Shown here: positions 1 to 57,004 of the stretch, piece after piece
Numbering within the stretch: the first letter of the stretch is position 1
Layout of the letters: every line of letters starts with the position of its first letter
Assembly (NCBI RefSeq): GCF_046105845.1
Contig: NZ_CP151004.1
DNA: 64,000 bases
From: Escherichia coli
GTDB lineage: Bacteria > Pseudomonadota > Gammaproteobacteria > Enterobacterales > Enterobacteriaceae
Strand: one strand, 5' to 3'
Position numbers and translations under genes: made by a program
Notes under the pieces: generated by a model
The model's input: the letters and a program-made list of their open reading frames with translations, nothing else
Told to the model about the DNA's origin: nothing
The model's database searches: none

Positions 1-762
1 CTCTGCCAAAGGCAGCGGGGGCAGCAACTCCCCAGTGTCCAGATAATGCTGGATTTCCCGAAAGATCCAGGGTCTTCCCTGAGCTGCGCGGCCTATCATC
101 AGGGCATCCGCCCCTGTATAGTCGAGCACAGCTCTGGCTTTAAGCGGGTCAGTAATGTCGCCATTCGCGATAACCGGAATGGAAACTTTCTGCTTAACTG
201 CCCGAATACTGTCGTACTCAGCTTCTCCATTGAACAAACAGGCGCGTGTACGGCCATGAATGGTCAGAGCCTGAATGCCACAGTCTTCAGCCAGTTGGGC
301 AATCTCTTCGCAGTTACGGTGTTCCGGTGCCCAGCCAGTGCGAATTTTCAGGGTAACAGGAACGTCCACTGCATTGACGACCTCGGTAAGGATCGATTTA
401 ACGACATCCGGGTACTGCAAGAGGGCTGAACCTGCGAGCTTGCGATTCACTTTTTTAGCCGGGCAACCCATATTGATATCAATAATCTGGGCACCGCTTT
501 CCACGTTAATACGTGCTGCATCTGCCATTTCTTTCGGATCGCTACCAGCAATTTGCACGGTGCGAATACCGGGTTCATCAATGTGCACCATCCGTAAACG
601 AGATTTGTCGCTTTCCCAAACCTGTGGGTTAGAAGACATCATCTCGGATACTGTCAATCCGGCTCCCATCTCGTAGCACAACGTCCGAAAAGGTCTGTCT
701 GTAATGCCAGCCATGGGCGCTGCGATCAGGCGATTTCTGAGCTGATATTGTCCGATGCGCAT
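1..762 (-). CDS. dusB: tRNA-dihydrouridine synthase B, 5' portion only (gene runs off the window start)
   Basis: Minus-strand translation from the ATG at 760-762 reads [25 protein letters not shown]..., matching E. coli DusB; no stop before position 1, so it is absent from the ORF track. Confidence 0.9.
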
Positions 763-5606: not shown

Positions 5607-6583
5607 GAGTGGGTTCCGTACTCTTTGTTTAGTGTGATTGTGACAGGCGTTTCACCGCCGTCTGTAAAGCGTATGCCCCGACAGCTGTATGCATAGCGAT
5701 AAATTCCAGCAGGCCGGGACGCCGGTCTATTTTGCCCCAGAGTGTCAATGTTAGACTTGACGGACATTGTGCAGCGATCTGCTGCTATCCTCCGGCAAAA
5801 AACAAAATATACCTTCGTTGCGCCAATGTCACCTTTTCCGCAGCGCAAAAACTGCGTCAGGGAGGACGAGGTCGCACATTATAACGATTTCGTAGCAATT
5901 GGCAGCTAAATACTGGTCTTATCAGGGAAGATAATCAACAGCTAACATGTAAATAACCTTCAACACCGTGTAATTTGCAACAAGCCGCACAATTCACGAA
6001 ATTAGCGCCATCATCGACGGAACTTCTTATAACGTAAGGTGAAAAGCTGTAAAGCCAGCCCTGCGAAGATGAGGGGCTGCAATGAGATAATCTTCACAGA
6101 CCACAAATAATGTAGGGATGCCAGGATCGCGACAAGATAGACGACATTACGCAGCGGTTGCTGAGGATTACGCAATTTTCACTGTATCGTCTGGATAGAT
6201 GTGAATGCTAAAGCACGCAAAATTAACCGATTGACAATGCTCAGCATTAAATAGGTTCGAGTGATTAATTTGTAGTCAAACAAAATCAGATTATTCCCCC
6301 CATGGTACCAGAAATCAGTAACAGGTTAAGCGTAGCGTCGCCCAAGCAAAGCACCATAAACCTAACAGGCGACGGAGGCGTATCAATAATGGCTGTTTAG
6401 TGGAGTAACAGTGCGCATCAATTTGTGGTCAGTCGAAATCATGACTTTCCAGTTTGGATGATGTTGTGCAACTTCATGACCAAGATGTTCGACGAAAGCT
6501 GTCCGGCTAACCGCTTTTCCCGTTAACCGATTGAATAATGATTTCAAAATGAGTTCCCTCTCTTATTATTCCCTGCTAAATGG
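5607..6583 (-). promoter_or_regulatory. long ORF-free region upstream of accB (promoter plus long leader)
   Basis: About 1 kb with no ORF of 60 aa or more in any frame, lying between the acuI stop and the accB start. accB is known to have a long autoregulated leader. Confidence 0.4.
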
Positions 6584-40416: not shown

Positions 40417-41749
<1,333 letters not shown>

Positions 41750-41824
41750 ATTTATTAGATCAGGTGTGACCTGACCCATCTTTGGCACAGAGCCAAACCT
41801 GAACTGACGGACCGCTCTGTGCCA

Positions 41825-42130
41825 TTACCTGACGTTGTATTCTTTTATGTTAACACCCTTGATACTGTATATACCTGTCCGCTTAATTCGCTTGCCCTTT
41901 TTATTCGTAATAGTTGCTGTAAGTGTACTGCAGCGAATGGAATGACGTTCATCAATCACCAGCCGAATTGCTTCTGAAGCATCTTCCACCTCTAGAAGGT
42001 CGTGAGTCTTATTTAAGCCGAATGGAACAAGGTGGAAGGCCGTTTTTCCAGATGATTTTCTGGTTATTTTTACTGGATACAACACATCACCACTTTTATG
42101 GATTAATTCAAGCTGTTCAATGTAAATCAT
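41825..42130 (-). other. AT-rich degenerate ORF downstream of the yhcG-like fragment
   Basis: 101-aa ORF in the same frame as 42218-42574 but separated from it by two in-frame stops; markedly AT-rich; no motif recognised. Confidence 0.25.
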
Positions 42131-42217
42131 GGCAACTTTCCTTCGTTTATCTGCATGAATATATAAACCGAAAATAGGAGATGCAATACAAAAGCTGTGG
42201 AAATATCAAATAGCCTC

Positions 42218-42574
42218 TCAATTTGGCAGACAGCGTCTGCCAAATCTTTGCCGATGGGAATTCTGCAGAATTTCAACATGTTGATAAAAAAGGTAAAAAA
42301 GCTTCATTTGGCGTAAGTTTTTTGCAGAGACCCCACGTTTATACCGTCGACTTAAATCCTGCGATAACCGATCAATCAGCTGTGCAGCATAAGCCGCTCT
42401 TGCCTCGCCGCCTTGTTCAAATTCGACAATTCGTCGGCCAATTTCCCAGTATGTGGCGGTCATTAACGCGTTAACACTACGTACCGTTTCCGTCCGGGCG
42501 CTATCGACCAGGTGAATAATACCGTCGTGGATTTGCTGGTAGCCTGTTGAGGTTCTCTCTGAGAGCGATTCCAT
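42218..42574 (-). pseudogene. yhcG-like (DUF1016-family) N-terminal fragment, probably a gene remnant
   Basis: 118-aa ORF whose sequence (...VNALMTATYWEIGRRIVEFEQGGEARAAYAAQLIDRLSQDLSRRY...) resembles the N-terminal domain of YhcG/DUF1016 proteins; it ends in stops with no PD-(D/E)xK domain. Confidence 0.4.
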
Positions 42575-42727
42575 TATCTGTCCCTTTATATGGCGCTGCG
42601 TTGAATAATGGAATCAGCTATACGCCGGGCATCTACCGGTAACAATCCAGATGAGCGTATTACATTGGTTTTCTTCACATTATGCGAGGCACCTTCCAGC
42701 GAGGTGTCACGTTGTGGTGAAGATAAA

Positions 42728-42760
42728 TCAAAAAAGGCCGGAGCGGGCGTATCCGGCCAG
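42728..42760 (-). terminator. rho-independent terminator of the five-gene operon
   Basis: GGCCGG...CCGGCC hairpin 7 nt after the vWA gene stop, followed on the minus strand by a T6 run. Confidence 0.8.
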
Positions 42761-42765
42761 AATTT

Positions 42766-43935
42766 TCAGGCGGTTTCTCTTGCTGTCACTACGCCATTTT
42801 GCGCAGCCCACAGATTCACATCTTCCTTACGAATGGCGGCGGCCATCATGCCGGGGAATAAATCTGGGGTACAGGCAAAGGAGGGAATACCCATGGCGGC
42901 GAGTTTTCCTGCCAGTGACCGGTCGTAAAACGGCGCACCTTCATCGCTTAAGGCCAGCAGGGTAACCACCTGTACGCCGGACTGAATCAACTCACTGGCG
43001 CGTTGCAACAGATTGCGTTCCACCCCGCCTTCGTAGAGGTCGGAAATCAGCACCAGAATGGTATTGCGCGGATCGCGAATCAAAGACTGGCAGTAGCCCA
43101 CCGCGCGGTTGATGTCGGTGCCGCCACCCAGCTGTACGCCAAACAGCAGCTCTACCGGATCGTCGAGCTTCTCTGTCATATCAACGACTGCGGTGTCGAA
43201 AACCACCAGATGCGTTTTTACCGCCGGGAGCGATGCCATTACTGCGCCAAAAATACTGGAATAGACCACCGAGGAGGCCATCGACCCACTCTGGTCGATA
43301 CATAAAATGATCTCCTTTTGCGTGCGTTGAGACTTGCGCCCGTAGCCGATCAGCGTTTCAGGAACAATACTTTTATACTCTTCCTGCCAGTGGCGCAGGT
43401 TGGCGCGAATGGTGCGCTGCCAGTCAATTTCCGCGTGGCGCGGGCGACGATTACGTACCGCACGATTAAGAGCGCCGCTTACCGCGCTACGCATTGGCTC
43501 TTCAAGCTGTTTCATCAATTGCTCGACAACTTTACGCACCACAAGCCTGGCGGTTTCTTTGGTTTTGGCCGGAATTACGCCATTCAGCGACATCAGCGTG
43601 GAGACCAGATGAACATCAGGCTGGACGTTTGCCAGCATCTCTGGCTCCAGCAGCATACTGTGCAAATTAAGACGTTCAAAGGCGTCTTTTTGCATCACCT
43701 GAACCACAGAAGAAGGGAAATACTGGCGAATATCACCCAGCCAGCGAGCGACTTTGGGTGACGATCCACCCGTGCCGCCGCGTAATCCATGTTTACCGTC
43801 TGGCTGATAGAGCGCCGCCAGCGCGGCATCAATCGCGGACTCTCTGGCATCCAGCGCCACGTTACAGGCATTGTCGGCATCTTCTCCAAGGATCAGACGC
43901 CAGCGGCGCAGCCGTTCCATTTCGTTACTCGACAT
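42766..43935 (-). CDS. von Willebrand factor A (vWA) domain protein with an intact MIDAS motif; gene 5 of the operon
   Basis: 389-aa ORF with ILCIDQSGSM (DxSxS), a downstream GGGTD and LISDLYEGG; AAGGG Shine-Dalgarno; start overlaps the upstream gene by 11 nt. Confidence 0.8.
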   Translation of the reverse strand: MSSNEMERLRRWRLILGEDADNACNVALDARESAIDAALAALYQPDGKHGLRGGTGGSSPKVARWLGDIRQYFPSSVVQVMQKDAFERLNLHSMLLEPEMLANVQPDVHLVSTLMSLNGVIPAKTKETARLVVRKVVEQLMKQLEEPMRSAVSGALNRAVRNRRPRHAEIDWQRTIRANLRHWQEEYKSIVPETLIGYGRKSQRTQKEIILCIDQSGSMASSVVYSSIFGAVMASLPAVKTHLVVFDTAVVDMTEKLDDPVELLFGVQLGGGTDINRAVGYCQSLIRDPRNTILVLISDLYEGGVERNLLQRASELIQSGVQVVTLLALSDEGAPFYDRSLAGKLAAMGIPSFACTPDLFPGMMAAAIRKEDVNLWAAQNGVVTARETA

Positions 43936-46174
43936 GATTTTCCCTTTCGTGTGGTGGCAAAGCCAGAATGCGGCGCAGTAGCGGCAGCATTAACGCGGCA
44001 CGCTGTTCATCCCATATACCGCAGGTCTCTTCTTGCTGCGCGACACGCTCGCCCTGCGCGGCGCGTTCGCCTAACTGGCGGCGTTCCGGGCTGGAAAAAC
44101 GGCCGAATGTCCGCCGCAGCATCGGCAGGATCCGGGTGAAGTGATCGTCGTTCAGACCGCTTAGCCAGGCATCGATCAACTGCCATAATTCGCTATTGTG
44201 CAGTAGCACCATCGCGCTGTCGTTGAGGAAACCTTCCGCCCATGCGGCACTTTCCGCCGGGGGATTGGCTGGCGATAGCGCCAGGTTCATCAGCGTGGTG
44301 ATCCGTTCTGTCGTTAACGTTTGCAGATCAAACAGCAGGCGCGTCGCCGTTCCGCGAAGCAGCGCGTGTGCGGTACTGCCCTCTGCCAGCACCATCAACG
44401 CCTGCAACCAGCCCGCCAACAGATCTTCGTTATCCAGCAACCGCAGCGCGGCGTGGGCGTCGATAACTTTTTCTCTCATACTGGCGGCGCTGTCGTCGTT
44501 GAGCGCCGAACAGGCTCCGGGTAGGGCGATGGCGGCGCGCGGGGCGAGGCTCATCAGTACCTGCATTACCATACCAGAGTCGGTCTGGCGCACGTTGCCG
44601 TAGCGGACAATCGCCACCAGTGGTGCCAGGGATTCCAGCAACTGTTCGATATTGCCCTGAGTGGCAGCCAGTGATTCCAGTGTATTGGCGATGGGGGCAA
44701 TCGCGGTCTGTAAATCGGCCAGTAGCACCTGTTGGATAAGCTTTGCCAGTTCCGGCAGCGTGCTGGCGTATTGCGCCCTCACAATGGCATAGCGGGAGCT
44801 GGCCTGCTCAATGCTGTTACCCCAACGGCTGGCGGTAATGATGTTCATTGCCAGTGCCGGTTCCCAGCGCAGCGACCAGACTTCGTGGAACGTCCCTTTG
44901 CTGTTATTTCCTTGTCCAGCCAGACGGCCCCAGGGAATGTCGAGTAAGGTCAGGCGATGCAGTAAATGGCTACGCGCCAGATCGCCGGGGTTGCGCAGAT
45001 CAAGATCCAGCACTTTTTCGCTGGCTTCTGCCTTCAGGCGCAGCGTTTTTTGCTGTTGCGTAATGTCGCGTTGGAGCGGCACGACGGGCGTATCATCCGG
45101 TACGCTTCCCAGCGCGTAGCCGACAATTAACTTCTGGCGAATCATCTGCATTGGCGCGCTTTCGCCCATACACACTACGGTTTGCAGCGCTTCGCAAAGT
45201 TCGTCAAGCCCCGGCTGCGGGTGATGGCGCATAATCGCCAGCGTCTGCGCCAGCCGCGCCGCTTCGATAATGTGGGCGCTGGAACAGTCGAGATCGGCTT
45301 CGCGAAACAGCCTTGCCGCGCGTGACAGCCAGCCGATATCGCGGTGAGAAGCGCCCTGATAACGCCACAGATGATCGTACCATTCCGGTGACACCACCCC
45401 TGCGCCATAACCGCTGGCGCGGCTTAACGCCTCGTAGCTCCAGGGCGTCCAGGCTGCCGCGACCTTGCACTTCGGCAAATTTTTCAGCAGTTCGTTATCA
45501 TTCTTTGCGGGCGGCAGGTTTTCCAGCGCCGGAACGTGCCACGCACCGCAGACTACCGCGATGCGCGAGAAGCCCTCTTTTTTCGCCTGACGTAGCGTCT
45601 TGCGCATATACGCTTCACGCAGTTGATCTCTGGCTGAGTTTCGGGCTTCGGGAGTTGCCTGGCGTAGGGCAATCATCGCCTCGCGAATCGCCTCGAACAG
45701 AGACAAATCATCTTCGCGTTCCTCTACTCTGTGGCTCCACCAGCTTTCCCCATCGGTGTAACCGGCGGCGCGGCCCAGCCAGTCCAGCGGATCGCCGTCG
45801 GGACTGGCTTCAACGGCATCATCGTCATCGCTTTCTTTTTCGTCATCAAGCGCGAACTGATGACTGATGGGCAAGTCCATAAAGCGCACGGCGATATTTT
45901 GCTCAAAACCATAGCGCAGCGCCTGCCATTCCGGGGAGAACGCCGCAAAGGGGTAAAACGCGGCGTGATGTGAGTCGTCCGGGGCATAAATCAGTAGCGC
46001 GACCGGCGGTTGCATCTGTTCATGCTGCATGAAAGGCAGAATGGATTCGCCGTCGGGCGGCCCTTCCACCAGCAGGCAGTCGGGCTGTAGCGTCTCCAGC
46101 GCCTTTCGCAGGCTGCGCGCGCAGCCAGGGCCATGGTGACGGATGCCAAACAAATGAACGGTTTGTTCAGTCAT
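43925..46174 (-). CDS. large uncharacterised protein, gene 4 of the operon (from memory resembles DUF5682-type, YehM-like proteins; unverified)
   Basis: 749-aa ORF with E. coli-like codon usage, an AAGG Shine-Dalgarno 9 nt upstream and an internal acidic stretch (DDEKESDDDDAVEASPDGD); no catalytic motif recognised. Confidence 0.7.
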   Translation of the reverse strand: MTEQTVHLFGIRHHGPGCARSLRKALETLQPDCLLVEGPPDGESILPFMQHEQMQPPVALLIYAPDDSHHAAFYPFAAFSPEWQALRYGFEQNIAVRFMDLPISHQFALDDEKESDDDDAVEASPDGDPLDWLGRAAGYTDGESWWSHRVEEREDDLSLFEAIREAMIALRQATPEARNSARDQLREAYMRKTLRQAKKEGFSRIAVVCGAWHVPALENLPPAKNDNELLKNLPKCKVAAAWTPWSYEALSRASGYGAGVVSPEWYDHLWRYQGASHRDIGWLSRAARLFREADLDCSSAHIIEAARLAQTLAIMRHHPQPGLDELCEALQTVVCMGESAPMQMIRQKLIVGYALGSVPDDTPVVPLQRDITQQQKTLRLKAEASEKVLDLDLRNPGDLARSHLLHRLTLLDIPWGRLAGQGNNSKGTFHEVWSLRWEPALAMNIITASRWGNSIEQASSRYAIVRAQYASTLPELAKLIQQVLLADLQTAIAPIANTLESLAATQGNIEQLLESLAPLVAIVRYGNVRQTDSGMVMQVLMSLAPRAAIALPGACSALNDDSAASMREKVIDAHAALRLLDNEDLLAGWLQALMVLAEGSTAHALLRGTATRLLFDLQTLTTERITTLMNLALSPANPPAESAAWAEGFLNDSAMVLLHNSELWQLIDAWLSGLNDDHFTRILPMLRRTFGRFSSPERRQLGERAAQGERVAQQEETCGIWDEQRAALMLPLLRRILALPPHERENHVE

Positions 46175-46191
46175 AGTGGTTGCCTTGCTGA

Positions 46192-47286
46192 TTACACAAT
46201 TTCGCGGCAGGCGCGATAGAGATCGTTCCAGTCGCTGCGCTCTTTGACGATGGTTTCCAGATATTCACGCCATACCACGTCGTCCTGCACGGGGTCTTTT
46301 ACCACCGCGCCGACCAGGCTTGCGGCAATATCCCGCGGATGCAGTACGCCGTCGCCAAAATGGCCTGCCAGCGCCATACCGTTGTTGATAACGGAGATCG
46401 CCTCCGCGGTGCTGAGAGTGCTGGTTGGCGACTTAATTTTTGTTTTGCCGTCAACCGTCAGGCCGTTTCGTAGTTCGCGGAATATCTGCACGACTCGCTG
46501 AATCTCCTTTAATGCTGGTGGTTCGGCGGGCAGCGCAAGCGCCTGGCCGAGTTCAGCGACGCGGCGAGTGACAATGTTAATCTCTTCTTCTTCGCTGGCG
46601 GGTACGGGCAAAATAACTGTGTTGAAACGACGTTTAAGCGCGGAAGAAAGTTCGTTAACACCTTTATCCCGGTTGTTGGCGGTGGCGATAACGTTAAAGC
46701 CGCGCGTCGCCTGGACCTCTTCATTCAGTTCGGGGATAGGCAGCGTTTTTTCCGACAGGATCGTGATCAGCGTGTCCTGAACATCAGCAGGAATACGCGT
46801 CAGCTCTTCTACGCGTGCAATCTGCCCGCGCGCCATCGCCCGCATCAACGGACTTTCTACCAGCGCCGAACGTGACGGACCTTTAGAGAGCAACTCCGCG
46901 TAGTTCCAGCCATAACGCATTTGTTCTTCACCGGTGCCTGCGGTGCCCTGAATAATTAACGTTGAGTCGCCGCTGATGGCGGCCGCCAGATGTTCAGAGA
47001 CCCAGGATTTCGCAGTGCCGGGTACGCCATACAACAGCAGTGCGCGATCGGTTGCCAGAGTGGCAACGGCAGTTTCGATAATCCGCCGGTTGCCGATATA
47101 TTTCGGCGTGACCTCAAAGCCATTTTCCAGCTGCCCGCCCAACAGATAGGTGGCGACGGACCATGGAGAAATGGCCCAGTTTTCCGGGCGCGGATGAGTA
47201 TCGTTTTTTTGCAGCTCATCCAGTTCTTCAGCAAATTGTTGTTCGGCATGTCGGCGTAAAACGGCGGCAGTAGCGGTGGAAGTCAT
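46192..47286 (-). CDS. MoxR-family AAA+ ATPase, gene 3 of the operon
   Basis: 364-aa product from the ATG at 47286 (ATGA overlap with the upstream stop; GGAG Shine-Dalgarno). Walker A GVPGTAKS, Walker B region IARVEEL, sensor-1 NVIATANN, arginine motif ALKRRF. Confidence 0.85.
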   Translation of the reverse strand: MTSTATAAVLRRHAEQQFAEELDELQKNDTHPRPENWAISPWSVATYLLGGQLENGFEVTPKYIGNRRIIETAVATLATDRALLLYGVPGTAKSWVSEHLAAAISGDSTLIIQGTAGTGEEQMRYGWNYAELLSKGPSRSALVESPLMRAMARGQIARVEELTRIPADVQDTLITILSEKTLPIPELNEEVQATRGFNVIATANNRDKGVNELSSALKRRFNTVILPVPASEEEEINIVTRRVAELGQALALPAEPPALKEIQRVVQIFRELRNGLTVDGKTKIKSPTSTLSTAEAISVINNGMALAGHFGDGVLHPRDIAASLVGAVVKDPVQDDVVWREYLETIVKERSDWNDLYRACREIV

Positions 47287-48887
47287 AAAGTAGTTTCTCC
47301 GACAAAAAACGAATGAAGTTGAATTCGGTGCGCCAGCGTGGCGCTCAGGGCAGTAAAGGCTGCCTCGCAATAAGGCGTTTGTTGTGCGTCGTGCGGCCAC
47401 TTTTCAATGACATCATTGAGGACTTCGGGGGCCAGCAGGCAGGCGAAATCACTCATCACATGGCGCAGGGCGTAGTCAAAGCGCGCGGAATCATGTTTCA
47501 CCCAACGGTGCAGCTCCGTGACCATTTGCTGGCTCAGGCGCAGGCTAAAGAGCGACGCATCCGGCGGTAACAGGCTGATGTAGCGATGTAAATGTTCGCC
47601 GCCCACCACTGAGAACAATGACCGTAACATCGGCTCGTGTTCTTCTACAGGCAGACATTGCAAAAGCTCAAAGGCGTTAATCTTCACGCCTGCAGTATGA
47701 TGAATGCTCATTCCGACGGGCAGCATGGCGAGAAACGCCTGCGCCCACTGCGGATTTTTTTCGCGCAGTACGGCGTGATACCAGGCGCGCAGTAGCGCCT
47801 CCTGCCAGTCGGTTTTCCCGGCCCAGCGCAGCAGTTCAACGGGGGTAGCCTGCAGTTGCGTTTGCCACCAGTCGAGCGGAACCGCTGCAACTATCTGATA
47901 CAGCCACCATGCGCGCTGGCCCAACTTTTCGCCTTTGGGCTTAGTTTCTTCCAGCGCATCGGCCTTCCACTCTGGTAAGAACGCCTCCGGGGCATCAAGG
48001 GCGACGCGCAGCGTTTTTTCTCCGCGCAGTAAACCTTTTCGCCGCGCAAGCCAGCTCTCAGGATCGGGGGAGGAATTGAGCAGCGGCGCTAACCTGGACT
48101 TCATGCGCCAGACCCAGGCGCTTTCTGGCAGACAAAGCAGTAATCGTGCCGCAGTTTGCCGCACCTCTTTGCTGCGATCGGATAATGTCTGTTCCAGAAA
48201 GGCTTCGTCGTATTGGGAGATCTCCACTTCCAGCACAGCCAGCAGCTGTGCGCGTTCGCGGGCATCCAGCGAACTCATCTCCTGCGCCAGCCGATCGCGA
48301 CCCTGTTCCGGGGCGCGAATGCGCATTTGCGTCAGATATTGCAGACGCTGTTCGGACGTGCCGTGCAGCCACATTTCTTCATCCAGCGGAGCGTCAACGG
48401 AGGCAAGAAAATAGCGCCAGTCGGCGTTAATCTGCGCCAGCCAGCGCCCGCGAGCGCCGAGGACATTGGGCAGAATGCCGCGTATTGATGGATTTTGTAC
48501 GCCGTAATTCAGCAGTGCCGGTAACAGCAGGGGCGGAGAAAGAAGCTGACGCTGGACCAGGTGATCAAGCGCTGACCACAGTAAACGCGGCGGCCCTTCT
48601 GCCAGCAACAGATGCAGCAGTCCCGCAAAAGCCGGGTTGTTTATTGGCTCGGCATTTTCTTTATCGATTTCCGGCAGCGGTGCGGGGTCAATCGCCTGCG
48701 GCTCCCAGCCAGCCAGATGGCAGAGTGCCAGAACGCCCGCCGAGCGCAGTAGCTGTTGCTCTGCAGATGTGTTATTCGCCAGTTCAGACAGTAGCAGCCC
48801 AATCTCACTTTGCGACGCTGACGGTGTAAACGCTTTTTTGTCTGTGCCGAGTAGCGCTGTGCGGGTTAAATTTTTCCATTCGTTCAT
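47283..48887 (-). CDS. uncharacterised Leu/Trp-rich protein, gene 2 of the operon (from memory resembles DUF5691-type proteins; unverified)
   Basis: 534-aa product from the ATG at 48887 (ATGA overlap with the SWIM gene stop; GGAGG Shine-Dalgarno 8 nt upstream); the track ORF begins at an upstream TTG. Confidence 0.7.
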   Translation of the reverse strand: MNEWKNLTRTALLGTDKKAFTPSASQSEIGLLLSELANNTSAEQQLLRSAGVLALCHLAGWEPQAIDPAPLPEIDKENAEPINNPAFAGLLHLLLAEGPPRLLWSALDHLVQRQLLSPPLLLPALLNYGVQNPSIRGILPNVLGARGRWLAQINADWRYFLASVDAPLDEEMWLHGTSEQRLQYLTQMRIRAPEQGRDRLAQEMSSLDARERAQLLAVLEVEISQYDEAFLEQTLSDRSKEVRQTAARLLLCLPESAWVWRMKSRLAPLLNSSPDPESWLARRKGLLRGEKTLRVALDAPEAFLPEWKADALEETKPKGEKLGQRAWWLYQIVAAVPLDWWQTQLQATPVELLRWAGKTDWQEALLRAWYHAVLREKNPQWAQAFLAMLPVGMSIHHTAGVKINAFELLQCLPVEEHEPMLRSLFSVVGGEHLHRYISLLPPDASLFSLRLSQQMVTELHRWVKHDSARFDYALRHVMSDFACLLAPEVLNDVIEKWPHDAQQTPYCEAAFTALSATLAHRIQLHSFFVGETTL

Positions 48888-50206
48888 TGTGCGCCTCCGG
48901 TTGCCCAAATCACGCTACCGGCAAGCCAGGCGCTACAGGGCGTCAGTTGCTGACCGTCCCATTCCCCCATTAGCATAAACGGCGCGCCGCCGCTGGCAGC
49001 CAGTAACCGCCAACCCTCGTCCGATGACAGGAGCGTCGGTAAGTGCTGGCCCTGTGTCGAGACGAATCGCCAGCCGCTCTCGTGCGGGTAAATCAATATT
49101 TCGCTTACTCGCAGCGGCAGAGGCCATTGCCAGGGATTCGCGCTAAGCCGCTGCGCCATGTCATGCAGCGCGTCCGGGAGGGGTAATTCTGCAAGCGGGA
49201 ATCTTTCACCGCGGGTAAACGGCTCCACAACCCGCGCCCGTAGCGGTGATGCGCCAGGGAAAAAGGCAAGCGCGCCCTGGCAGACTTGCCCGGTGATAAA
49301 GTGCTGGGGAAAGTTTTTACCACCGTGTGAATAGTCCAGCAGTAGCGCGGTGCGGTGGCTCTTTTCTCCGTACAACCAGACCCGGCGTCGCCACAGATTA
49401 TTCTCTTCTTGCGCGCTTTGACCTAAGATCTGCCAGTTATCGAGGCAGGTTAATCCGTCAGTGACGTCGTGTTTTTCCGGGGGTATTCCCAATGCCGCAT
49501 GGAGATCGCTAAGTTGTGCCGGGGATAACATTTGTTGCTGGCGCCAGGCGTCAATAATCAGCTGTAGCTGCCCCAGTTCTTTGCACAGGCTCGATGGCCA
49601 TACCTCGGCGGTAGTAAAAAGAGTGGTCAGATTGTTCAGGCGAGCGGCAATTCCCGGTAGTTGGGCGTCGACCATGCGGGCGGCGATCCCGGCAAAAGGC
49701 AACTGTTGTGCAGAGATCTGCGCCAGACCGTGGCGGATCAGGTCGTGCATCCACTGTTCGAGGAAATCCAGCCCCGCCGTCATTTTTTGGTTACGTGCCG
49801 CTTCCCGTTTGGCGGCAGCCTGCGGGTCGGCAGCTTTTGCCTCAGCCTGCTCTTTCTTCTCTTCTTTGTGAACCGCCCGCTGCTGGCGCGAGGTTAGCCA
49901 CTCGCTTACCCATTCCGGCGGCTCGCCAGCGGTGAAACTTGCGGTGTGTTGCACCTGGAGCAAAAGCAACGCAAGGCTATGTTTACAGGGGAATTTACGG
50001 CTGGGGCAGGAACATTTACAGGCCAGATCCTGTCTGTCGATTCGTACCTGATAAGGGCGGGAGCCGCTACCTTTACACTCTCCCCAGAAGGCGGTCTCGC
50101 TATATCCCAGCGTCGGCCATTTTGCGGGGGCAACCAGGCCACGAGCCGCTTTAACCGAGGCGTCATCGGGCGCCAGGGCTTGCACTGATTCAACGGTCAG
50201 TTCCAT
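48884..50206 (-). CDS. SWIM zinc-finger domain protein, gene 1 of the operon
   Basis: 440-aa ORF with a CxCxnCxH motif (CKCSCPSRKFPCKH) near residue 60, then a Lys/Glu/Ala-rich charged linker and a C-terminal domain of unknown function. Confidence 0.8.
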   Translation of the reverse strand: MELTVESVQALAPDDASVKAARGLVAPAKWPTLGYSETAFWGECKGSGSRPYQVRIDRQDLACKCSCPSRKFPCKHSLALLLLQVQHTASFTAGEPPEWVSEWLTSRQQRAVHKEEKKEQAEAKAADPQAAAKREAARNQKMTAGLDFLEQWMHDLIRHGLAQISAQQLPFAGIAARMVDAQLPGIAARLNNLTTLFTTAEVWPSSLCKELGQLQLIIDAWRQQQMLSPAQLSDLHAALGIPPEKHDVTDGLTCLDNWQILGQSAQEENNLWRRRVWLYGEKSHRTALLLDYSHGGKNFPQHFITGQVCQGALAFFPGASPLRARVVEPFTRGERFPLAELPLPDALHDMAQRLSANPWQWPLPLRVSEILIYPHESGWRFVSTQGQHLPTLLSSDEGWRLLAASGGAPFMLMGEWDGQQLTPCSAWLAGSVIWATGGAQ

Positions 50207-50398
50207 TACAATTCTCTATTGGCGTGGGGAAATCGATGGGGTCAAGGAGGCGTTAAGCAAAGCAGGAGGAGACTGTTTTCCGTAACAGCGTATTGCGCGT
50301 CCATCGCAAATTTGTAGTGAGTATAGCGGGCGGTAAATTCAGGAAACAATGGCGGATAGCGGAAAGTGTAGTTTTTCGGAAAAAGATAACTTTATCCC

Positions 50399-50431
50399 GT
50401 GTAACCCGTTTTAAGCGGGCTACACGGGAGG
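50399..50431 (-). terminator. strong hairpin immediately downstream of gltD (probable terminator)
   Basis: 13-bp stem CCCGTGTAGCCCG / CGGGTTACACGGG with one G-U pair, starting 8 nt after the gltD stop; the U-tract is displaced about 12 nt. Confidence 0.5.
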
Positions 50432-50438
50432 CTGCAAT

Positions 50439-51869
<1,431 letters not shown>

Positions 51870-54800
51870 TTACTGCGCCTGCACGCGCAACTCTGCTGCG
51901 CTACGACTACGGTGACCCAGCAGTGCTTTTACATCACTGGACTTCGGTTTAACCAGCGCGAATTTCGTGGCGAAGGTTGACCAGTTCGCCAGAATCTCTT
52001 CACCGCGCTGGGAACCGGTATGCTGCACATGCTCGGTGATAAGACCGCGCAGATGCTCTTCATGGATCGCCAGATCGTCAACGCTTAAGACCTCGACCAG
52101 TTCCGGGTTAACGCGTTTGCGGAAATCGCCGCTTTCATCGAGAACGTAAGCGAAGCCTCCGGTCATACCCGCGCCGAAATTCACGCCGGTTTTACCCAGA
52201 ATACAGACAATACCGCCCGTCATATATTCACAGCCATTATCGCCAATGCCTTCTACCACGGTGATAGCACCGGAGTTCCGCACGCCGAAACGTTCACCCG
52301 CGCGGCCTGCGGCATACAGACGACCACCGGTCGCGCCATACAGGCAGGTGTTGCCGATAATACTTGCTTCATGGCTGCGGAAGGCTGAGCCAACCGGAGG
52401 GCGAATGGCGATTAAGCCGCCCGCCATGCCTTTACCGACATAGTCGTTGGCATCACCGGTCAGGTACAGTTCCACGCCGCCCGCGTTCCACACACCGAAG
52501 CTCTGGCCTGCGGTGCCGTTGAAGTACGCTTTGATCGGATCGGCTGCCAGACCCTGATCGCCGTGCGTCTGGGCGATATAGCCTGAAAGCGACGCGCCGA
52601 CAGAACGGTCGGTGTTGCGAATATCGAACCAGAAGGTTTTGCTCTGACGCTCATCGACAAACGGTTTTGCCTGTTGCAGCAACTGTGCGTTCAGCAGGCC
52701 GTTATCAAACGGCGGGTTGTTTTCGGTACAGTAGAGCGCCTTACCTGGATGCGGCTCAGCGGTCTCCAGCAGTTTCGACAGCGCCAGTTTCTGCTGTTTG
52801 GCGGTGAAACCGTCCAGCTCTTTAAGCAGGTCGGTGCGACCAATCAGATCCACCAGCCGCGTTACCCCCAGCTGTGCCATCAGCTCGCGGGTTTCACGTG
52901 CGATAAACTCAAAGTAATTGGTCACCTTGAACGGCAGGCCGTGATAGTGATTCTTACGCAGTTTGTCATCCTGAGTTGCAACACCCGTCGCGCAGTTGTT
53001 CAGATGGCAAATACGCAGATATTTACAACCGAGCGCCACCATCGGGCCAGTGCCGAAGCCGAAGCTTTCTGCGCCGAGAATCGCCGCTTTGATGATATCA
53101 ACGCCGGTTTTCAGGCCGCCATCAACCTGCAAACGGATCTTATGACGCAGACCATTGGCAACCAGCGCCTGTTGGGTTTCAACAAGCCCCAGCTCCCACG
53201 GACAGCCTGCGTATTTCACCGATGAAAGCGGACTTGCGCCGGTGCCGCCGTCATAGCCTGCGATGGTGATTAAATCGGCATAAGCTTTTGCCACGCCAGT
53301 CGCGATGGTGCCTACGCCTGGTTCGGAAACCAGCTTCACGGAGATCATCGCTTTTGGATTGACCTGCTTGAGGTCGAATATCAGCTGCGCTAAATCCTCG
53401 ATAGAGTAGATATCGTGGTGCGGCGGCGGGGAGATCAGCGTCACTCCGGGCACCGAATAGCGCAGTTTGGCAATGTAAGGAGTGACTTTATCACCCGGCA
53501 ATTGACCGCCTTCGCCCGGCTTCGCGCCCTGGGCGACTTTAATCTGAATGACGTCGGCATTGACCAGGTACGCCGGAGTAACACCGAAGCGACCGGACGC
53601 CACCTGCTTGATGCGCGACACTTTGTTAGTGCCATAGCGCGCCGGGTCTTCACCGCCTTCGCCGGAGTTTGAGTTACCGCCGATGCTGTTCATCGCTTCC
53701 GCCAGCGCCTCGTGGGCTTCCGGGCTTAACGCGCCGATAGACATCGCGGCGGTATCGAAGCGTTTAAACAGTTCGCTTGCCGGTTCAACATCAGCAATGT
53801 TGACCGCGTTTTCACCCGGCGTAATTGCCAGCAGATCGCGCAGCGTGGTTGCCGGACGCTCATTAACCAGCTTCGCGTATTCCTGATAGTCGCTATACTC
53901 GCCGCTTTGTACCGCCTGCTGCAGTGTGCGCACCACGTCCGGGTTGTAGGCGTGGTATTCGCCGCCGTGCACGTATTTCAGCAGGCCGCCCTGGCTGATG
54001 GGCTTGCGCGCCAGCCAGGCACGTTTCGACAGATTCAGCAGATCCTGCTGGAAGTCTTCAAAGCTCGCCCCGCCAATGCGGCTAACCGCGCCCTGGAAGC
54101 ACAGGCCTACGACATCATCGTGTAGACCGACCGCTTCAAACAGTTTCGAGCAGCGGTAAGAGGCGATGGTGGAGATGCCCATTTTGGACATGATTTTGTA
54201 CAAGCCTTTGTTGATGCCGTTACGGTAGTTGAGCATCACGGTACGATAATCTTTGGCAATCGCGTGGGTGTCTACCAGGCGGCCCAGCGTTTCATAGGCA
54301 AGGTACGGATAAATAGCCGTCGCACCGAAGCCCAGCAACACGGCGAAGTGGTGCGGATCACGGGCGCTGGCGGTTTCGACGATGATGTTGGCATCGCAAC
54401 GCAGGCTTTGCTCGACCAGACGGGTCTGGATCGCGCCAACCGCCATCGGGGCTGGAACCGGCAGGCGATCTTTAGCGATATTCCTGTCGGAGAGCACCAG
54501 CAACACGGTGCCGCTACGTACCATTTTTTCAGCTTTGTCGCACAGCTCTTTGACCGTCGCTTCGAGCGTGGTTTTGGTGACGTCAAAGGTGATATCCAGT
54601 GTATCTGCGCGGTAGTGCTCCTCTTTCATCGTCGTGAGCTGTTTGAAATCGGAGTAGAGCAGAATCGGCGATTTAAAACTTAAACGGTGCGCCTGGCCCT
54701 CTGCTTCACAGAAGACGTTCATTTCACGCCCGATGCTGGTGGCGAGCGACATAACATGCGCTTCACGCAGTGGGTCGATTGGCGGGTTGGTGACCTGGGC

Positions 54801-56423
54801 AAATTGCTGGCGGAAGTAATCGTAAATAATGCGCGGCTGACTGGAGAGCACGGCGAATGGGGTGTCGTCGCCCATCGAACCGACCGCTTCCTGACCGTTT
54901 TCGCCCAGTACGCGAATTACGGAGTCCAGCTCTTCCGCGCTGTAGTTAAACTGTTTCTGGTAGCTGGCAAGTGTGTCGTCGTCCAGTTCGCGGCTACCTA
55001 CTTCTTCATCGGGCAGATCTTCAAACGGTACCAGTCGGCGGACGTTTTTCTCCATCCACTCTTTATATGGATGGCGGCTTTTCAGATCGTCATCGGTTTC
55101 TGCCGAGTGCAGAATACGCCCACTGCGGGTGTCGATAACCATCAGTTCGCCTGGCCCGACGCGGCCTTTTTCGACCACTTCGTCAGGCTGGTAATCCCAG
55201 ATACCGACTTCAGAGGCGCAGGTGATGAGCTTATCTTTGGTGATGACGTAGCGCGCCGGACGCAGACCGTTACGGTCGAGGTTACAGGCAGCGAAGCGAC
55301 CATCGGACATCACGATGCCCGCCGGACCATCCCACGGCTCCATATGCATGGAGTTAAAGTCAAAGAAGGCACGCAGTTCCGGGTCCATATCCGGGTTGTT
55401 CTGCCAGGCGGGTGGTACTAACAGACGCATGGCGCGGATGATATCCATCCCGCCTGCCAGCAGCAGTTCCAGCATGTTATCCATCGAACTGGAGTCAGAA
55501 CCGGTTTCGTTGACGAACGGCGCGGCGTCGTGCAGGTCAGGGATCAGCGGCGTCTGGAATTTATAGGTACGTGCGCGCGCCCATTGGCGGTTACCGGTGA
55601 TGGTGTTGATTTCACCGTTATGCGCCAGGTAGCGGAACGGCTGCGCCAGCGGCCAGCGCGGTACGGTGTTAGTGGAAAAGCGCTGGTGAAACAGGCAGAT
55701 GGCCGATTCCAGACGCAGGTCCGCGAGGTCCAGGTAGAAGCGCGGCAGATCCGCCGGCATACACAGACCTTTATAGATGTTCACCAGATTCGACAGGCTA
55801 CAGACGTAGAAGTCTTTGTCGGCTTCGAGACGCTTTTCAATGCGGCGGCGGGCGATAAACAGACGGCGCTCCATATCGCGCGGACGCCAGCCTGCCGGGG
55901 CGTTCACAAAAATTTGCTCAATGCGTGGCAGAGAGGAGAGGGCGATTTCACCCAGCACGCCTTCGTTAGTGGGGACATCACGCCAGCCCACAATCGACAA
56001 CGTTTCGCGTTGCAGCTCTTCTTCAACGATGTGGCGTGCGGCAGCAGCGAGTTCAGGATCTTTATTCAGGAATAGCATCCCGACGGCGTAGTTTTTTGCT
56101 AAACGCCAGCCGCGCTCCTGCGCAACGATGCGAAAAAAGCGATCCGGTTTTTGTAACAGCAAGCCGCAACCGTCACCGGTTTTACCATCGGCGAGAATCG
56201 CGCCACGGTGCTGCATGCGGGCCAGTGCGTGTATTGCAGTACGCACTACCTTGTGGCTAGGTTCGCCTTCTATGTGGGCGATCAGGCCGAAACCACAGTT
56301 ATCCCTCTCAAGGGATTTATCGTACAACATATCGTGAACCTCCCCCAGGCTCTGCGGGAACCCCACTTCCGAACCGCTGCGCACGGGCACAGAAAGAGCG
56401 TGGCGACGGGGGTTGCGTGTCAT
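51870..56423 (-). CDS. gltB: glutamate synthase large subunit
   Basis: About 1517-aa product from the ATG at 56423 ([14 protein letters not shown]...), including the propeptide before the Cys of [11 protein letters not shown]. Confidence 0.96.
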
Positions 56424-57004
56424 ACGCGCGCCTCGCATTCGCCCCCTTGTTGTCCTTTTCGCATCGGTTAATACGGTGAAGAGGGGATCTCAATTACTGC
56501 ATAAATATGATGAGCAGGCTGCTCATCCAGAAAGCTTCCAGCGGATTTCCAACTTATCGGGAAAGCTGATACAGGTCAAATGGCAAGCTTATTGGTACAG
56601 AAATGTGCTTTAGCGCAAAATTCTTTATTAAATGGCTGAAATTAAAATAGATTTTATCTTTAAGGCTAAAAGGGAAGTCGTTAGAGAAACAGTCAATTCC
56701 TGACTGTCATAAAGGCGTGTTAACCCTTATCCTGCCTTGAACTGACGAGAAAACCAGCATTTTATACTGCCTTAATTGATAATGACGTTTCATGCTACTG
56801 TTTTTGCCTAAAATCCATAAGGAGATAAAAAAATCTGACACAAGATAAGCAAAAGTGATTTATGTGATTATGCATGAAATTTCGGTAATTTTGATTGATT
56901 ATGCAGTTGATAAAAGCAGGCCGGGACGATTGATCCAGGTCATCGCCGAATTGGGCTAAAAATGGCAGGCTTTGGCCTCTTTTCAAGGCGCGGTCTATCA
57001 GATT
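56424..57004. promoter_or_regulatory. divergent gltB / yhcC promoter region
   Basis: 580-bp AT-rich intergenic region between divergent starts; contains a 19-bp perfect palindrome at 56509-56527. Confidence 0.5.

Follow-up and report, generated by a model that had tools for sequence, protein, structure and literature searches.

A yhcG pseudogene joined to foreign DNA with a probable small expression unit next to nanQ in Escherichia coli

The DNA adjoining nanQ in the 64-kb stretch of E. coli sequence analysed here (the window) most probably consists of a yhcG pseudogene joined to unrelated foreign DNA that holds a small, self-contained expression unit; we put the probability of this reading at about 0.8. 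The yhcG product is a DUF1016 protein, helical in its N-terminal domain and with a PD-(D/E)xK nuclease at its C-terminus. The arrangement is a common and already annotated E. coli polymorphism, in which the yhcG pseudogene is accompanied by a small foreign open reading frame, here called ORF101. RefSeq labels the two pieces a DUF1016 N-terminal domain pseudogene and a 'transposase' (WP_000639208.1). The features of the region are collected in Table 1.

Table 1 Features of the yhcG/ORF101 region, with positions numbered within the window.
Feature	Position	Strand	Description
yhcG remnant, part A	42263..42574	-	codons 1-104, original frame; DUF1016_N
yhcG remnant, part B	42222..42269	-	codons 120-135, out of frame with part A
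52-nt internal deletion junction	42262..42269		removes yhcG nt ~314-365; frameshift
Perfect palindrome	42221..42245		ATTTGGCAGAC-N3-GTCTGCCAAAT; 11+11 bp, yhcG's own sequence
Foreign ~400-bp cassette	41812..42216	-	promoter-like site, Shine-Dalgarno and 101-aa ORF
Putative sigma70-like promoter	42158..42186	-	TTGCAT (42186-42181), 17-nt spacer, TATATT (42163-42158)
Shine-Dalgarno-like AAGGA	42139..42143	-	8 nt before ATG; read from sequence
ORF101	41825..42130	-	intact 101-aa gene, rare uncharacterised family
Spacer between cassette and nanQ stop	41750..41811		61-62 bp; replaces normal yhcG-nanQ spacer
nanQ (yhcH)	41285..41749	+	convergent neighbour, far end of replaced segment; RefSeq annotation of matching loci

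The remnant was compared by tblastn with an intact, 375-aa E. coli YhcG. Residues 1 to 104, encoded at 42574-42263, were identical at 96 of 104 positions (92%). The 118-aa ORF that starts here (42218-42574, minus strand) matched DUF1016_N in Pfam (PF17761; E 1.9e-25, 90 bits against a cut-off of 32.8) and nothing beyond it, in agreement with the initial annotation, which had assigned the ORF to the N-terminal part of a YhcG/DUF1016 protein. The match extends over profile positions 2-90 of 137, so that the domain in this ORF is only a partial one. A second piece with the residues SAEFPSAKIWQTLSAK was identical to YhcG at 16/16 positions in frame -3, and its DNA was 100% identical to intact yhcG. 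Residues 136 to 375 had no similarity to anything in the whole 64-kb window, even at E = 10. The PD-(D/E)xK motif is therefore missing, as had been remarked initially of the downstream sequence. In YhcG, the nuclease domain with its E-D-E(I/L/V)K motif occupies residues 235-375 (PMC1189080).

Intact YhcG (COG4804; PF17761 plus the DUF1016/PDDEXK family PF06250; PADLOC PDC-S02) shares its chromosomal position beside nanQ with the remnant but possesses residues 136-375, whereas the remnant is without them, nuclease domain included. Nor does the remnant have the uninterrupted frame of about 340-380 codons seen in YhcG/DUF1016 proteins: its frame is broken after codon 103-104 by a 52-nt deletion, and yhcG sequence stops at codon 135. 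Judged from its sequence, the stretch 42222-42574 is a non-functional yhcG/DUF1016 pseudogene that has lost the nuclease domain. The description 'decayed DUF1016 gene' thus holds for this stretch and fails for the 101-aa ORF, which is a separate gene. Comparison of the yhcG 5' part with intact alleles gave dN/dS values of 0.10-0.23; ratios of 0.1-0.2 indicate that its divergence accumulated while yhcG was still functional. The gene was lost by being cut in a replacement event and then by one secondary deletion, not by point-mutation decay.

The deletion was delineated by blastn against intact yhcG and BL21, which aligned in two pieces with an 8-nt overlap. Its junction coincides with an imperfect repeat of 8 nt that reads TCGCCAGA in intact genes and TCTGCAGA in the window. 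None of 5426 complete E. coli genomes covered at least 80% of an 86-nt probe for this junction, and on this survey the deletion is unique to the window's lineage. It is the kind of change expected of DNA no longer under selection. Because of it, the 118-aa ORF ends in 14 residues that are read out of frame. Translation of 41825-42574 (minus strand) in a single frame yields 118 aa, a stop, three codons, a second stop, 25 codons and ORF101, which reproduces the initial observation that two in-frame stops (42218-42220 and 42206-42208) are followed by an AT-rich 101-aa ORF in the same frame. The starts of the two ORFs are 444 nt apart. In BL21-type alleles without the deletion, by comparison, the spacing is 496 nt, a number not divisible by 3. 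Thus, the shared frame is a consequence of the lineage-specific 52-nt deletion.

Sequence belonging to yhcG stops at the edge of a perfect palindrome, which identifies that edge as the breakpoint. The palindrome is also present in intact yhcG (nt 383-405), with related copies both at yhcG nt 306-326 and, at intact loci, between yhcG and nanQ; its position suggests that it may have had a part in the breakage. Homology to the cassette begins sharply at 42216, 5 bp from the yhcG breakpoint. At the other end, homology to intact loci picks up again exactly at the nanQ stop. The DNA between cassette and nanQ shows no similarity to the intact locus beyond this stop and is identical in BL21. An 11-bp inverted repeat has its left arm in this spacer (41783-41793) and its right arm in the cassette tail (41814-41824). 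The replaced stretch amounts to ~780 bp, from yhcG codons 136-375 through the yhcG-nanQ spacer.

Searches with ORF101 yielded 37 homologues, mostly of exactly 101 aa. The protein recurs with 82-90% identity in Enterobacter, Yersinia, Kosakonia, Kluyvera and Cedecea, where its loci have no connection with yhcG. For ORF101, dS was 0.42-0.59 and dN 0.07-0.10 (dN/dS 0.14-0.22), and most differences fell in third codon positions (24-28 of 38-46). On these alignments, ORF101 is a separate, real gene under purifying selection. The family is rare: an exhaustive profile search recovered 39 cluster representatives among 1.84 billion. Its members, of about 100 aa, share the motif H-x-S-G-D-x-L-Y-P ... 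G ... V-R ... G-L-Y ... S-I, and ORF101 aligns to them over its full length, conserved motif positions included. Across 32 sequences G14 and R66 are invariant, and H11, L17, P19, G28, G38, V58, G86, Y88 and I95 are conserved in at least 90%. An AF2 model built from this 32-sequence alignment (pLDDT 93.4; only 48 with a shallow alignment of 19 close sequences) predicts a small beta-rich domain with one helix. ORF101 had no match in Pfam, NCBIfam, PHROG or PADLOC, nor in the PDB or BFVD by sequence/profile or by fold. No Pfam or NCBIfam family was hit by eight family members, among them the fusion proteins P0049 and P0060; both databases were searched with the two fusion proteins, and the PHROG search covered ORF101 only.

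ORF101 lies within a cassette whose DNA is 83-86% identical to copies in other genera over 395-409 nt (blastn). These copies come from Yersinia, two species of Enterobacter, Kosakonia, Kluyvera, Cedecea and one further genome (L014), and across them the cassette ends are constant within about 12 bp, at 42215/42216 and 41809-41821. Outside the locus in the window, the cassette occupies at least seven contexts at unrelated sites. The E. coli form is 5'-truncated relative to the ~570-bp unit of the other genera. The region of ORF101 has 33-43% G+C, against 50-60% in the flanks. Terminal inverted repeats, a target duplication and a recombinase were all absent from the E. coli copy. A 17-nt motif, TGAGCGAAGAGCGGAAG, may be an att-like direct repeat at the cassette ends. 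Rfam gave no match at E <= 1 for 41500-43000 and nothing for three related loci either, and RNAalifold found no covariation in the conserved 250-nt upstream region of the cassette in other genera.

Prophage 'morons' are self-contained promoter-gene units placed between phage genes. The cassette resembles them in being small and AT-rich with its own promoter-like site, and an 84%-identical Enterobacter copy lies among cargo genes between prophage replication and nin regions. Unlike prophage morons, however, the copy in the window and those of several other genera are chromosomal and outside any prophage, and no T-run terminator follows ORF101. The closest copies of ORF101 were absent from 50,697 sequenced phage genomes (tblastn), and a plasmid search returned only one mislabelled chromosome and two partial Klebsiella matches.

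Upstream of ORF101, 11 cassette copies were aligned, among them 47-68% diverged ones from Pantoea, Rahnella and Cronobacter; the invariant leader positions include the -35 TTG and the -10 T-A-n-A-T-T of a sigma70-like site, which may serve as the promoter of the small gene. A generic promoter/terminator scan reported nothing relevant in the region; it did not flag the predicted promoter because the -35 element matches the consensus at only 3/6 positions. The Shine-Dalgarno position reads GGAG in other cassette copies. A hairpin that would sequester the Shine-Dalgarno, and for which the E. coli copy seems to have two compensatory changes, was considered and rejected, since its 5' arm falls between the -35 and -10 of the promoter-like element, which is conserved much better. 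Given that ORF101 is intact and under purifying selection, it most likely yields a protein; transcription would start at its own predicted promoter or read through from that of yhcG, which lies on the same strand.

The same yhcG/cassette junction is present in 716-725 of 5426 complete E. coli genomes (~13%), BL21 among them. Cassette identity across the 725 is 98.5-98.8%; the median genome has one copy, and none has more than two. An arrangement shared by ~13% of complete genomes is thus ordinary, apart from the role of the small gene. The BL21/REL606-type allele (ECBD_RS02720 plus ECBD_RS02715) is identical to that of the window in its junction, its 62-bp spacer and its ORF101 protein, and 98.9% identical to 41701-42269 overall. 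It differs, however, in being without the 52-nt deletion, in having gltD on the other side, where the window has a five-gene operon, and in its yhcG 5' part, which is a different allele (dS 0.37). Mismatches against BL21 number 0-3 per 100 nt in 41700-42299 but 19 in 42300-42399, and no complete E. coli genome matches the yhcG 5' part of the window at more than 93.5% identity. A mosaic allele with its deletion junction beside so divergent a patch means that recombination certainly occurred here. The yhcG'/ORF101 allele is old and common in E. coli, and the window carries its copy in a mosaic background.

Several other readings of the region were weighed. ORF101 had been taken initially as a continuation of yhcG, in which case the whole 750 bp would be one decayed DUF1016 gene and ORF101 its degenerated C-terminal half. 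Both ORFs do lie on one strand and in one frame, and their combined 250 codons come near the length of a DUF1016 protein. Nevertheless, the frame is shared only through the lineage-specific deletion, ORF101 bears no resemblance to YhcG 136-375 even at E = 10, homology to loci of other genera sets in abruptly 5 bp from the yhcG breakpoint, and the 101-aa protein stands alone in those genera, away from yhcG, at 82-90% identity and with a dN/dS of 0.14-0.22. Such an origin is practically inconceivable, and the downstream ORF has turned out to be a real conserved gene. Somewhat different is the proposal that the DUF1016_N fragment is alive, a stand-alone domain forming a new two-gene module with ORF101. 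Of complete E. coli genomes, 13% retain the truncated allele, which varies very little among them, the fragment and ORF101 are co-oriented and could be co-transcribed, and several short PADLOC PDC-S02 models cover only the N-terminal part. In the window, however, the reading frame of the fragment is shifted by a 52-nt deletion that no other complete genome showed, from which it follows that the fragment is dispensable here; the BL21 version is flagged as a pseudogene by PGAP, and none of the ORF101 copies in other genera adjoins a DUF1016_N gene. A living module is accordingly improbable in our judgement.

RefSeq's name implies that ORF101 is a transposase or IS fragment and that insertion of a mobile element cut yhcG. 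PGAP and UniRef both call the protein 'transposase', one Cronobacter entry reads 'IS600 orf', and the cassette does sit at different sites in different genera. Against this, transposase and HTH_Tnp domains were absent from ORF101 (Pfam, NCBIfam, PHROG) and from eight family members (Pfam, NCBIfam), and the AF2 model, which has no PDB match, contains no DDE fold and no HTH of the kind in IS3/IS600 OrfA. The low copy number in E. coli genomes and the lack of terminal inverted repeats or target duplication flanking the cassette in the window speak the same way, and the event replaced about 780 bp, unlike an insertion into an otherwise complete gene. We consider this origin very improbable. A further possibility is that the truncation is the scar of an insertion of the five-gene MoxR/VWA/SWIM operon between yhcG and gltD, as was suggested when the remnant was called a scar of the rearrangement that produced this locus. 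The remnant directly adjoins the operon, and the allele in the window is a mosaic whose deletion junction lies next to the highly divergent patch. Yet an identical yhcG/ORF101 junction exists in about 720 operon-free E. coli genomes (BL21 is truncated without the operon), the operon stands beside an intact yhcG in N96 and three others and beside a different yhcG remnant in SMS-3-5, and it lies on the 5' (promoter) side of yhcG, while the truncation is at the 3' side. There is little chance that the scar reading is correct; from this pattern of occurrence, the yhcG truncation is independent of the neighbouring MoxR/VWA operon.

For the pseudogene joined to foreign DNA, the most probable course is as follows. 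A single recombination event removed yhcG from codon 136 through the yhcG-nanQ spacer, breaking at the palindrome edge, and about 470 bp of foreign AT-rich DNA (the cassette plus 61-62 bp) took the place of the removed segment. In the lineage of the window, a divergent yhcG 5' part adjoins this old allele, and a further deletion of 52 nt between two 8-nt imperfect repeats has frameshifted the remnant. The putative promoter-gene unit also occurs sporadically in other Enterobacterales.

The surroundings of the wider family bear on what ORF101 may do. In three clusters whose mutual identity is below 50%, the family gene is flanked by hsdR and hsdM. Like accessory genes of type I restriction-modification operons, these relatives of ORF101 (32-36% identity) overlap or abut hsdR and hsdM; the copy in the window, by contrast, has no hsd neighbours. 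Two of the loci (L025 and L027) have the same gene order, so the three type I contexts may represent one or two related lineages. DUF1016, RhuM, Fic and GIY-YIG genes also occur between hsd genes, and DUF1016 genes are enriched beside restriction-modification and BREX loci (PMC9881135). Another member lies between MzaC/MzaD-like genes and an Eco57I/MmeI-type enzyme (type IIG restriction-modification), and one adjoins a PADLOC dCTPase gene (E 1.3e-100), a dCTP-deaminase defence gene. In lambdoid prophages, a 59% relative of ORF101 neighbours gene N but is encoded on the other strand; two viral contigs from IMG/VR also carry family members. YhcG in its intact form hits PDC-S02, a PADLOC candidate (E 1.3e-134); PDC entries are non-validated 'guilt-by-embedding' candidates (PMC10855318). 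ORF101 matched no family in PADLOC-DB v2, and 32 members gave only two chance-level matches (E about 0.02); the family thus has no counterpart among known models of defence or anti-defence proteins. The cassette copies of Kosakonia, Kluyvera and Pantoea adjoin ordinary genes (MCP, NmrA, DUF1345, response regulator). The embedding in defence loci is therefore mixed, with restriction-modification, Mza-like and dCTPase contexts and the displacement of PDC-S02/yhcG on one side and none in Kosakonia, Kluyvera and Pantoea on the other. This company suggests that ORF101 may be a stand-alone accessory protein in phage-host or restriction-related conflict.

The interval between nanQ and gltD acts as an exchange site, with cargo of accessory or candidate-defence genes. 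Its contents include an intact yhcG, yhcG' with ORF101, other remnants with hypothetical genes, and the five-gene MoxR/VWA/SWIM operon; these states combine independently, with breakpoints at palindromes within yhcG. For annotation, the RefSeq name 'transposase' given to WP_000639208.1 and its relatives has no detectable basis, and 'hypothetical protein' would be better. The name has also spread to Enterobacter, Yersinia, Cronobacter and Pantoea entries.

As an orphan, ORF101 lends itself well to study, being very small, modelled with confidence, under selection, and present in BL21 but not in K-12. That it represents an undescribed family of ~100 residues, whose fold is without a confident counterpart in the PDB and BFVD, travelling on a ~570-bp cassette and acting in phage-host conflict, is a tentative proposal that we think has a modest chance of being right. 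If it is, ORF101 could be a restriction accessory or modulator, or a prophage-encoded exclusion or anti-restriction factor, and its presence in BL21 and absence from K-12 would constitute a difference between two standard laboratory lineages.

Translation of 41825-42574 (minus strand) in a single frame yields a 118-aa ORF that ends at a stop codon (42218-42220), three further codons, a second stop (42206-42208), 25 more codons and then, still in the same frame, a 101-aa ORF (ORF101). The G+C content is 33-43% over 41775-42375 versus 50-60% in the flanks, and Pfam recognises DUF1016_N in the 118-aa ORF (E 1.9e-25). The coordinates, paired stops, shared frame, AT-richness and N-terminal YhcG/DUF1016 domain described in the initial annotation are thus confirmed; its interpretation, of a decayed DUF1016 gene or a rearrangement scar, is supported only in part.

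The alignment to intact yhcG that had been proposed as a check was carried out with the 375-aa YhcG of an E. coli genome possessing the normal nanQ, yhcG, gltD order. YhcG residues 1-104 align to 42574-42263 with 92% identity and residues 120-135 align perfectly to 42269-42222 in a different frame, while residues 136-375 have no match anywhere in the 64-kb window. The PD-(D/E)xK nuclease domain (residues 235-375; PMC1189080) lies inside this absent portion, in agreement with the earlier failure to recognise a nuclease motif. A 52-nt deletion (yhcG nt ~314-365) accounts for the change of frame; its ends lie within an 8-nt imperfect repeat, TCGCCAGA versus TCTGCAGA. Consequently, the "118-aa protein" finishes with 14 residues read through out of frame, and the frame shared with ORF101 is accidental, the two starts being 496 nt apart without the deletion. 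Of 5426 complete E. coli genomes, not one covered 80% or more of an 86-nt probe over the deletion junction; thus, the deletion is private to this lineage.

Homology to yhcG extends as far as ~42221, where a perfect 11+11-bp palindrome of yhcG itself (intact-gene nt 383-405) has its edge; the intact locus is matched again only from the nanQ stop codon onward. The intervening stretch of roughly 470 bp is foreign. Within it, the segment 41812-42216 aligns over 395-409 nt, at 83-86% identity, with one site each in several other genomes: in Yersinia canariae the site adjoins an integrase beside icd, in Enterobacter cloacae it lies inside a lambdoid prophage, and the others are in Enterobacter vonholyi, Kosakonia arachidis, Kluyvera ascorbata, Cedecea davisae and one further genome (L014). 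The end points agree within about 12 bp. In those genomes the conserved unit reaches about 165 nt further upstream, to about 570 bp in total; the E. coli-type copy is truncated at the 5' end, precisely at its junction with yhcG. No Rfam match, covariation or conserved small ORF was found in the additional upstream region. The region is therefore a yhcG pseudogene whose 3' two-thirds have been replaced by a foreign promoter-plus-gene cassette.

Locations of features in the window and at related loci
Feature	Location	Strand	Remarks
nanR-nanA-nanT-nanE-nanK-nanQ	ends 41749	+	
yhcG remnant/ORF101 region	41825-42574	-	between nanQ and five-gene operon
Five-gene operon	42766-50206	-	
gltB-gltD	50439-56438	-	
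ORF101 -35 element (putative)	42186-42181	-	TTGCAT; TTG invariant in leader alignment
ORF101 -10 element (putative)	42163-42158	-	TATATT; T-A-n-A-T-T invariant; 17-nt spacer from -35
ORF101 Shine-Dalgarno	8 nt before ATG		GGAG/AAGGA
yhcG-type palindromes/repeats, window	42221-42245; 42262-42269		
yhcG-type palindromes/repeats, intact yhcG (L002)	nt 306-326; 383-405		
Additional ~165-nt upstream region	L003, L005, L031-L034, about 5750-5915		conserved, non-coding; missing from E. coli copy
17-nt motif, upstream edge	L003 5750-5766; L005 5756-5772; L032/L033 5756-5772		
17-nt motif, downstream	L014 6347-6363; L031 6346-6362		about 40 nt past stop codon
SMS-3-5 locus	L010 2114-3017		third locus state; 123-nt internal yhcG fragment, codons ~24-68
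Fusion protein P0049	L038 1331-2314		327 aa

Related palindromes in yhcG (core GCAGAC-N3-GTCTGC) encode repeated Q-T-x-S peptides, and a third copy occupies the yhcG-nanQ spacer of the intact locus, after the yhcG stop codon. The repeats coincide with both breakpoints present here, that of the cassette junction and that of the 52-nt deletion, and are thus suggested to be hot spots for illegitimate recombination. In four genomes the cassette's upstream edge is marked by a 17-nt motif, TGAGCGAAGAGCGGAAG (≤3 mismatches), which may be an att-like flanking direct repeat. At L014 and L031 it is not at the upstream edge, only Cedecea possesses an upstream motif together with a degenerate downstream copy, and the window's cassette copy has none.

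The initial proposal of a decayed DUF1016 gene holds for the upstream remnant, which is a broken yhcG. It does not hold for ORF101, which is foreign DNA and, judged by its substitution pattern, is a gene under purifying selection and not decaying sequence. Across the other genera the protein is 82-90% identical, with a length that hardly ever departs from 101 aa; pairwise Nei-Gojobori estimates gave dS 0.42-0.59, dN 0.07-0.10 and omega 0.14-0.22, with 24-28 of 38-46 differences at third codon positions. A real, conserved downstream gene is the very outcome that the initial annotation had named as refuting its reading. An alignment of the leaders of 11 cassette copies, including those of the 47-68% diverged Pantoea, Rahnella and Cronobacter genes, indicates that the window's copy appears to keep its own promoter-like site. 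A generic promoter scan did not report this site because its -35 element matches only 3/6 positions. Since ORF101 is co-oriented with the yhcG remnant, it may also be transcribed by read-through from the yhcG promoter.

The suggestion that the region is a scar of the rearrangement that formed this locus was not supported. The adjacent operon (encoding VWA_CoxE, DUF5682, an AAA_5 MoxR-like ATPase, DUF5691 and a SWIM zinc finger) occupies the yhcG-gltD site in only 33 of the 5426 genomes. It accompanies an intact yhcG in N96 and a different 123-nt yhcG remnant plus two hypothetical genes in SMS-3-5, and is absent from BL21, which carries the ORF101 allele. Since yhcG and operon states assort freely among strains, the truncation is independent of the operon. 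The operon's VWA protein had no PADLOC match. The SMS-3-5 hypothetical genes, between nanQ and the operon, encode 190 and 48 aa; the 190-aa protein matched nothing in Pfam or PADLOC.

The window's allele is nevertheless a mosaic: relative to BL21 it has 0-3 mismatches per 100 nt in 41700-42299, 19 in 42300-42399 and 6 in 42400-42499. The divergent patch at 42300-42450 (codons ~42-92), with flanks differing by 0-6 per 100 nt, looks like an imported segment of a divergent allele. For the 5' part of yhcG (probe 42263-42765), the best match among complete E. coli genomes reaches 93.5% identity, and the dN/dS of this part, 0.10-0.23, shows that it diverged while yhcG was still a working gene. For three stretches searched within 41700-50500, no complete E. 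coli genome reached 99% identity (best 96.6-98.8% by segment); the sequence probably comes from an Escherichia/Shigella lineage that the 5426 complete genomes do not include. On the simplest reading, homologous recombination would have brought the ORF101 allele into a genome that already possessed the operon and a divergent yhcG, and the 52-nt deletion would have arisen at or after that event.

RefSeq names the ORF101 protein a transposase. Nothing was found to support this identity: the protein lacks a transposase domain, neither inverted repeats nor a target duplication accompany the gene, and genomes carry essentially a single copy. One Cronobacter relative is labelled "IS600 orf", and "transposase" appears to be a propagated label. 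ORF101 matched nothing in Pfam, NCBIfam, PHROG or PADLOC, and only 39 family members emerged when 1.84 billion cluster representatives were searched exhaustively by profile. The majority, about 100 aa in length, have in common the motif H-x-S-G-D-x-L-Y-P ... G ... V-R ... G-L-Y ... S-I; two are fusions with a longer N-terminal region, which itself matches no family. Close relatives occur in only seven of 100,044 species (one genome each), all Enterobacterales. AlphaFold2, run on a 32-sequence alignment, predicted a mostly beta-stranded protein (seven segments of at least 3 residues) with a single helix (pLDDT 93.4, pTM 0.83); Foldseek against PDB and BFVD returned nothing below E 0.1. Proteins of identical sequence are recorded under Shigella flexneri. 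In both metagenomic fusions, P0049 and P0060 (365 aa), the ORF101-like domain is C-terminal. By eye, the N-terminal P0060 motifs …LGFSKG… and …HPSGSNGHF… recall uracil-DNA-glycosylase-fold proteins; near P0049 are a Fic-domain gene and a weakly Pycsar-effector-like protein (E 3e-5, below cut-off).

Genomic company offers a tentative guess at function. Three clusters of relatives, mutually <50% identical and 32-36% identical to ORF101, lie between hsdR and hsdM of type I restriction-modification operons, overlapping or abutting both neighbours, with an AAA_15 ATPase resembling NsnB/PDC-M55A downstream. Another relative sits between MzaC/MzaD-like genes and an Eco57I/MmeI-type enzyme, and a close copy (86%) adjoins a defence dCTP deaminase (PADLOC E 1.3e-100). 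In lambdoid prophages a 59% relative neighbours gene N, on the opposite strand, and it also occurs on two IMG/VR contigs; the Enterobacter prophage copy is among cargo genes between the replication and nin genes. Intact YhcG itself matches the PADLOC candidate PDC-S02 (E 1.3e-134); PDC entries are non-validated "guilt-by-embedding" candidates (PMC10855318), and DUF1016 genes are enriched beside restriction-modification and BREX loci (PMC9881135). The Kosakonia, Kluyvera and Pantoea copies, however, adjoin ordinary genes, which counts against a defence role. A phage-host or restriction-related role for ORF101 is the best guess at present, though rather less than an even bet.

The cassette is present in 725 of the 5426 complete E. 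coli genomes (98.5-98.8% identity), on chromosomes only and, in all copies inspected, at the nanQ-yhcG junction; a 1.1-kb probe was at least 80% covered in 718. Carriers include BL21 and O104:H4, and yhcG is intact in most other E. coli. RefSeq gives the BL21 order as nanQ, "transposase" WP_000639208.1 (101 aa), a DUF1016_N pseudogene (405 nt; "incomplete; missing C-terminus") and gltD, so the feature is already recorded. The allele is thus common and annotated, and its novelty is low. What retains interest is a mis-named, uncharacterised small protein, ORF101, together with the modular turnover of the nanQ-gltD locus.
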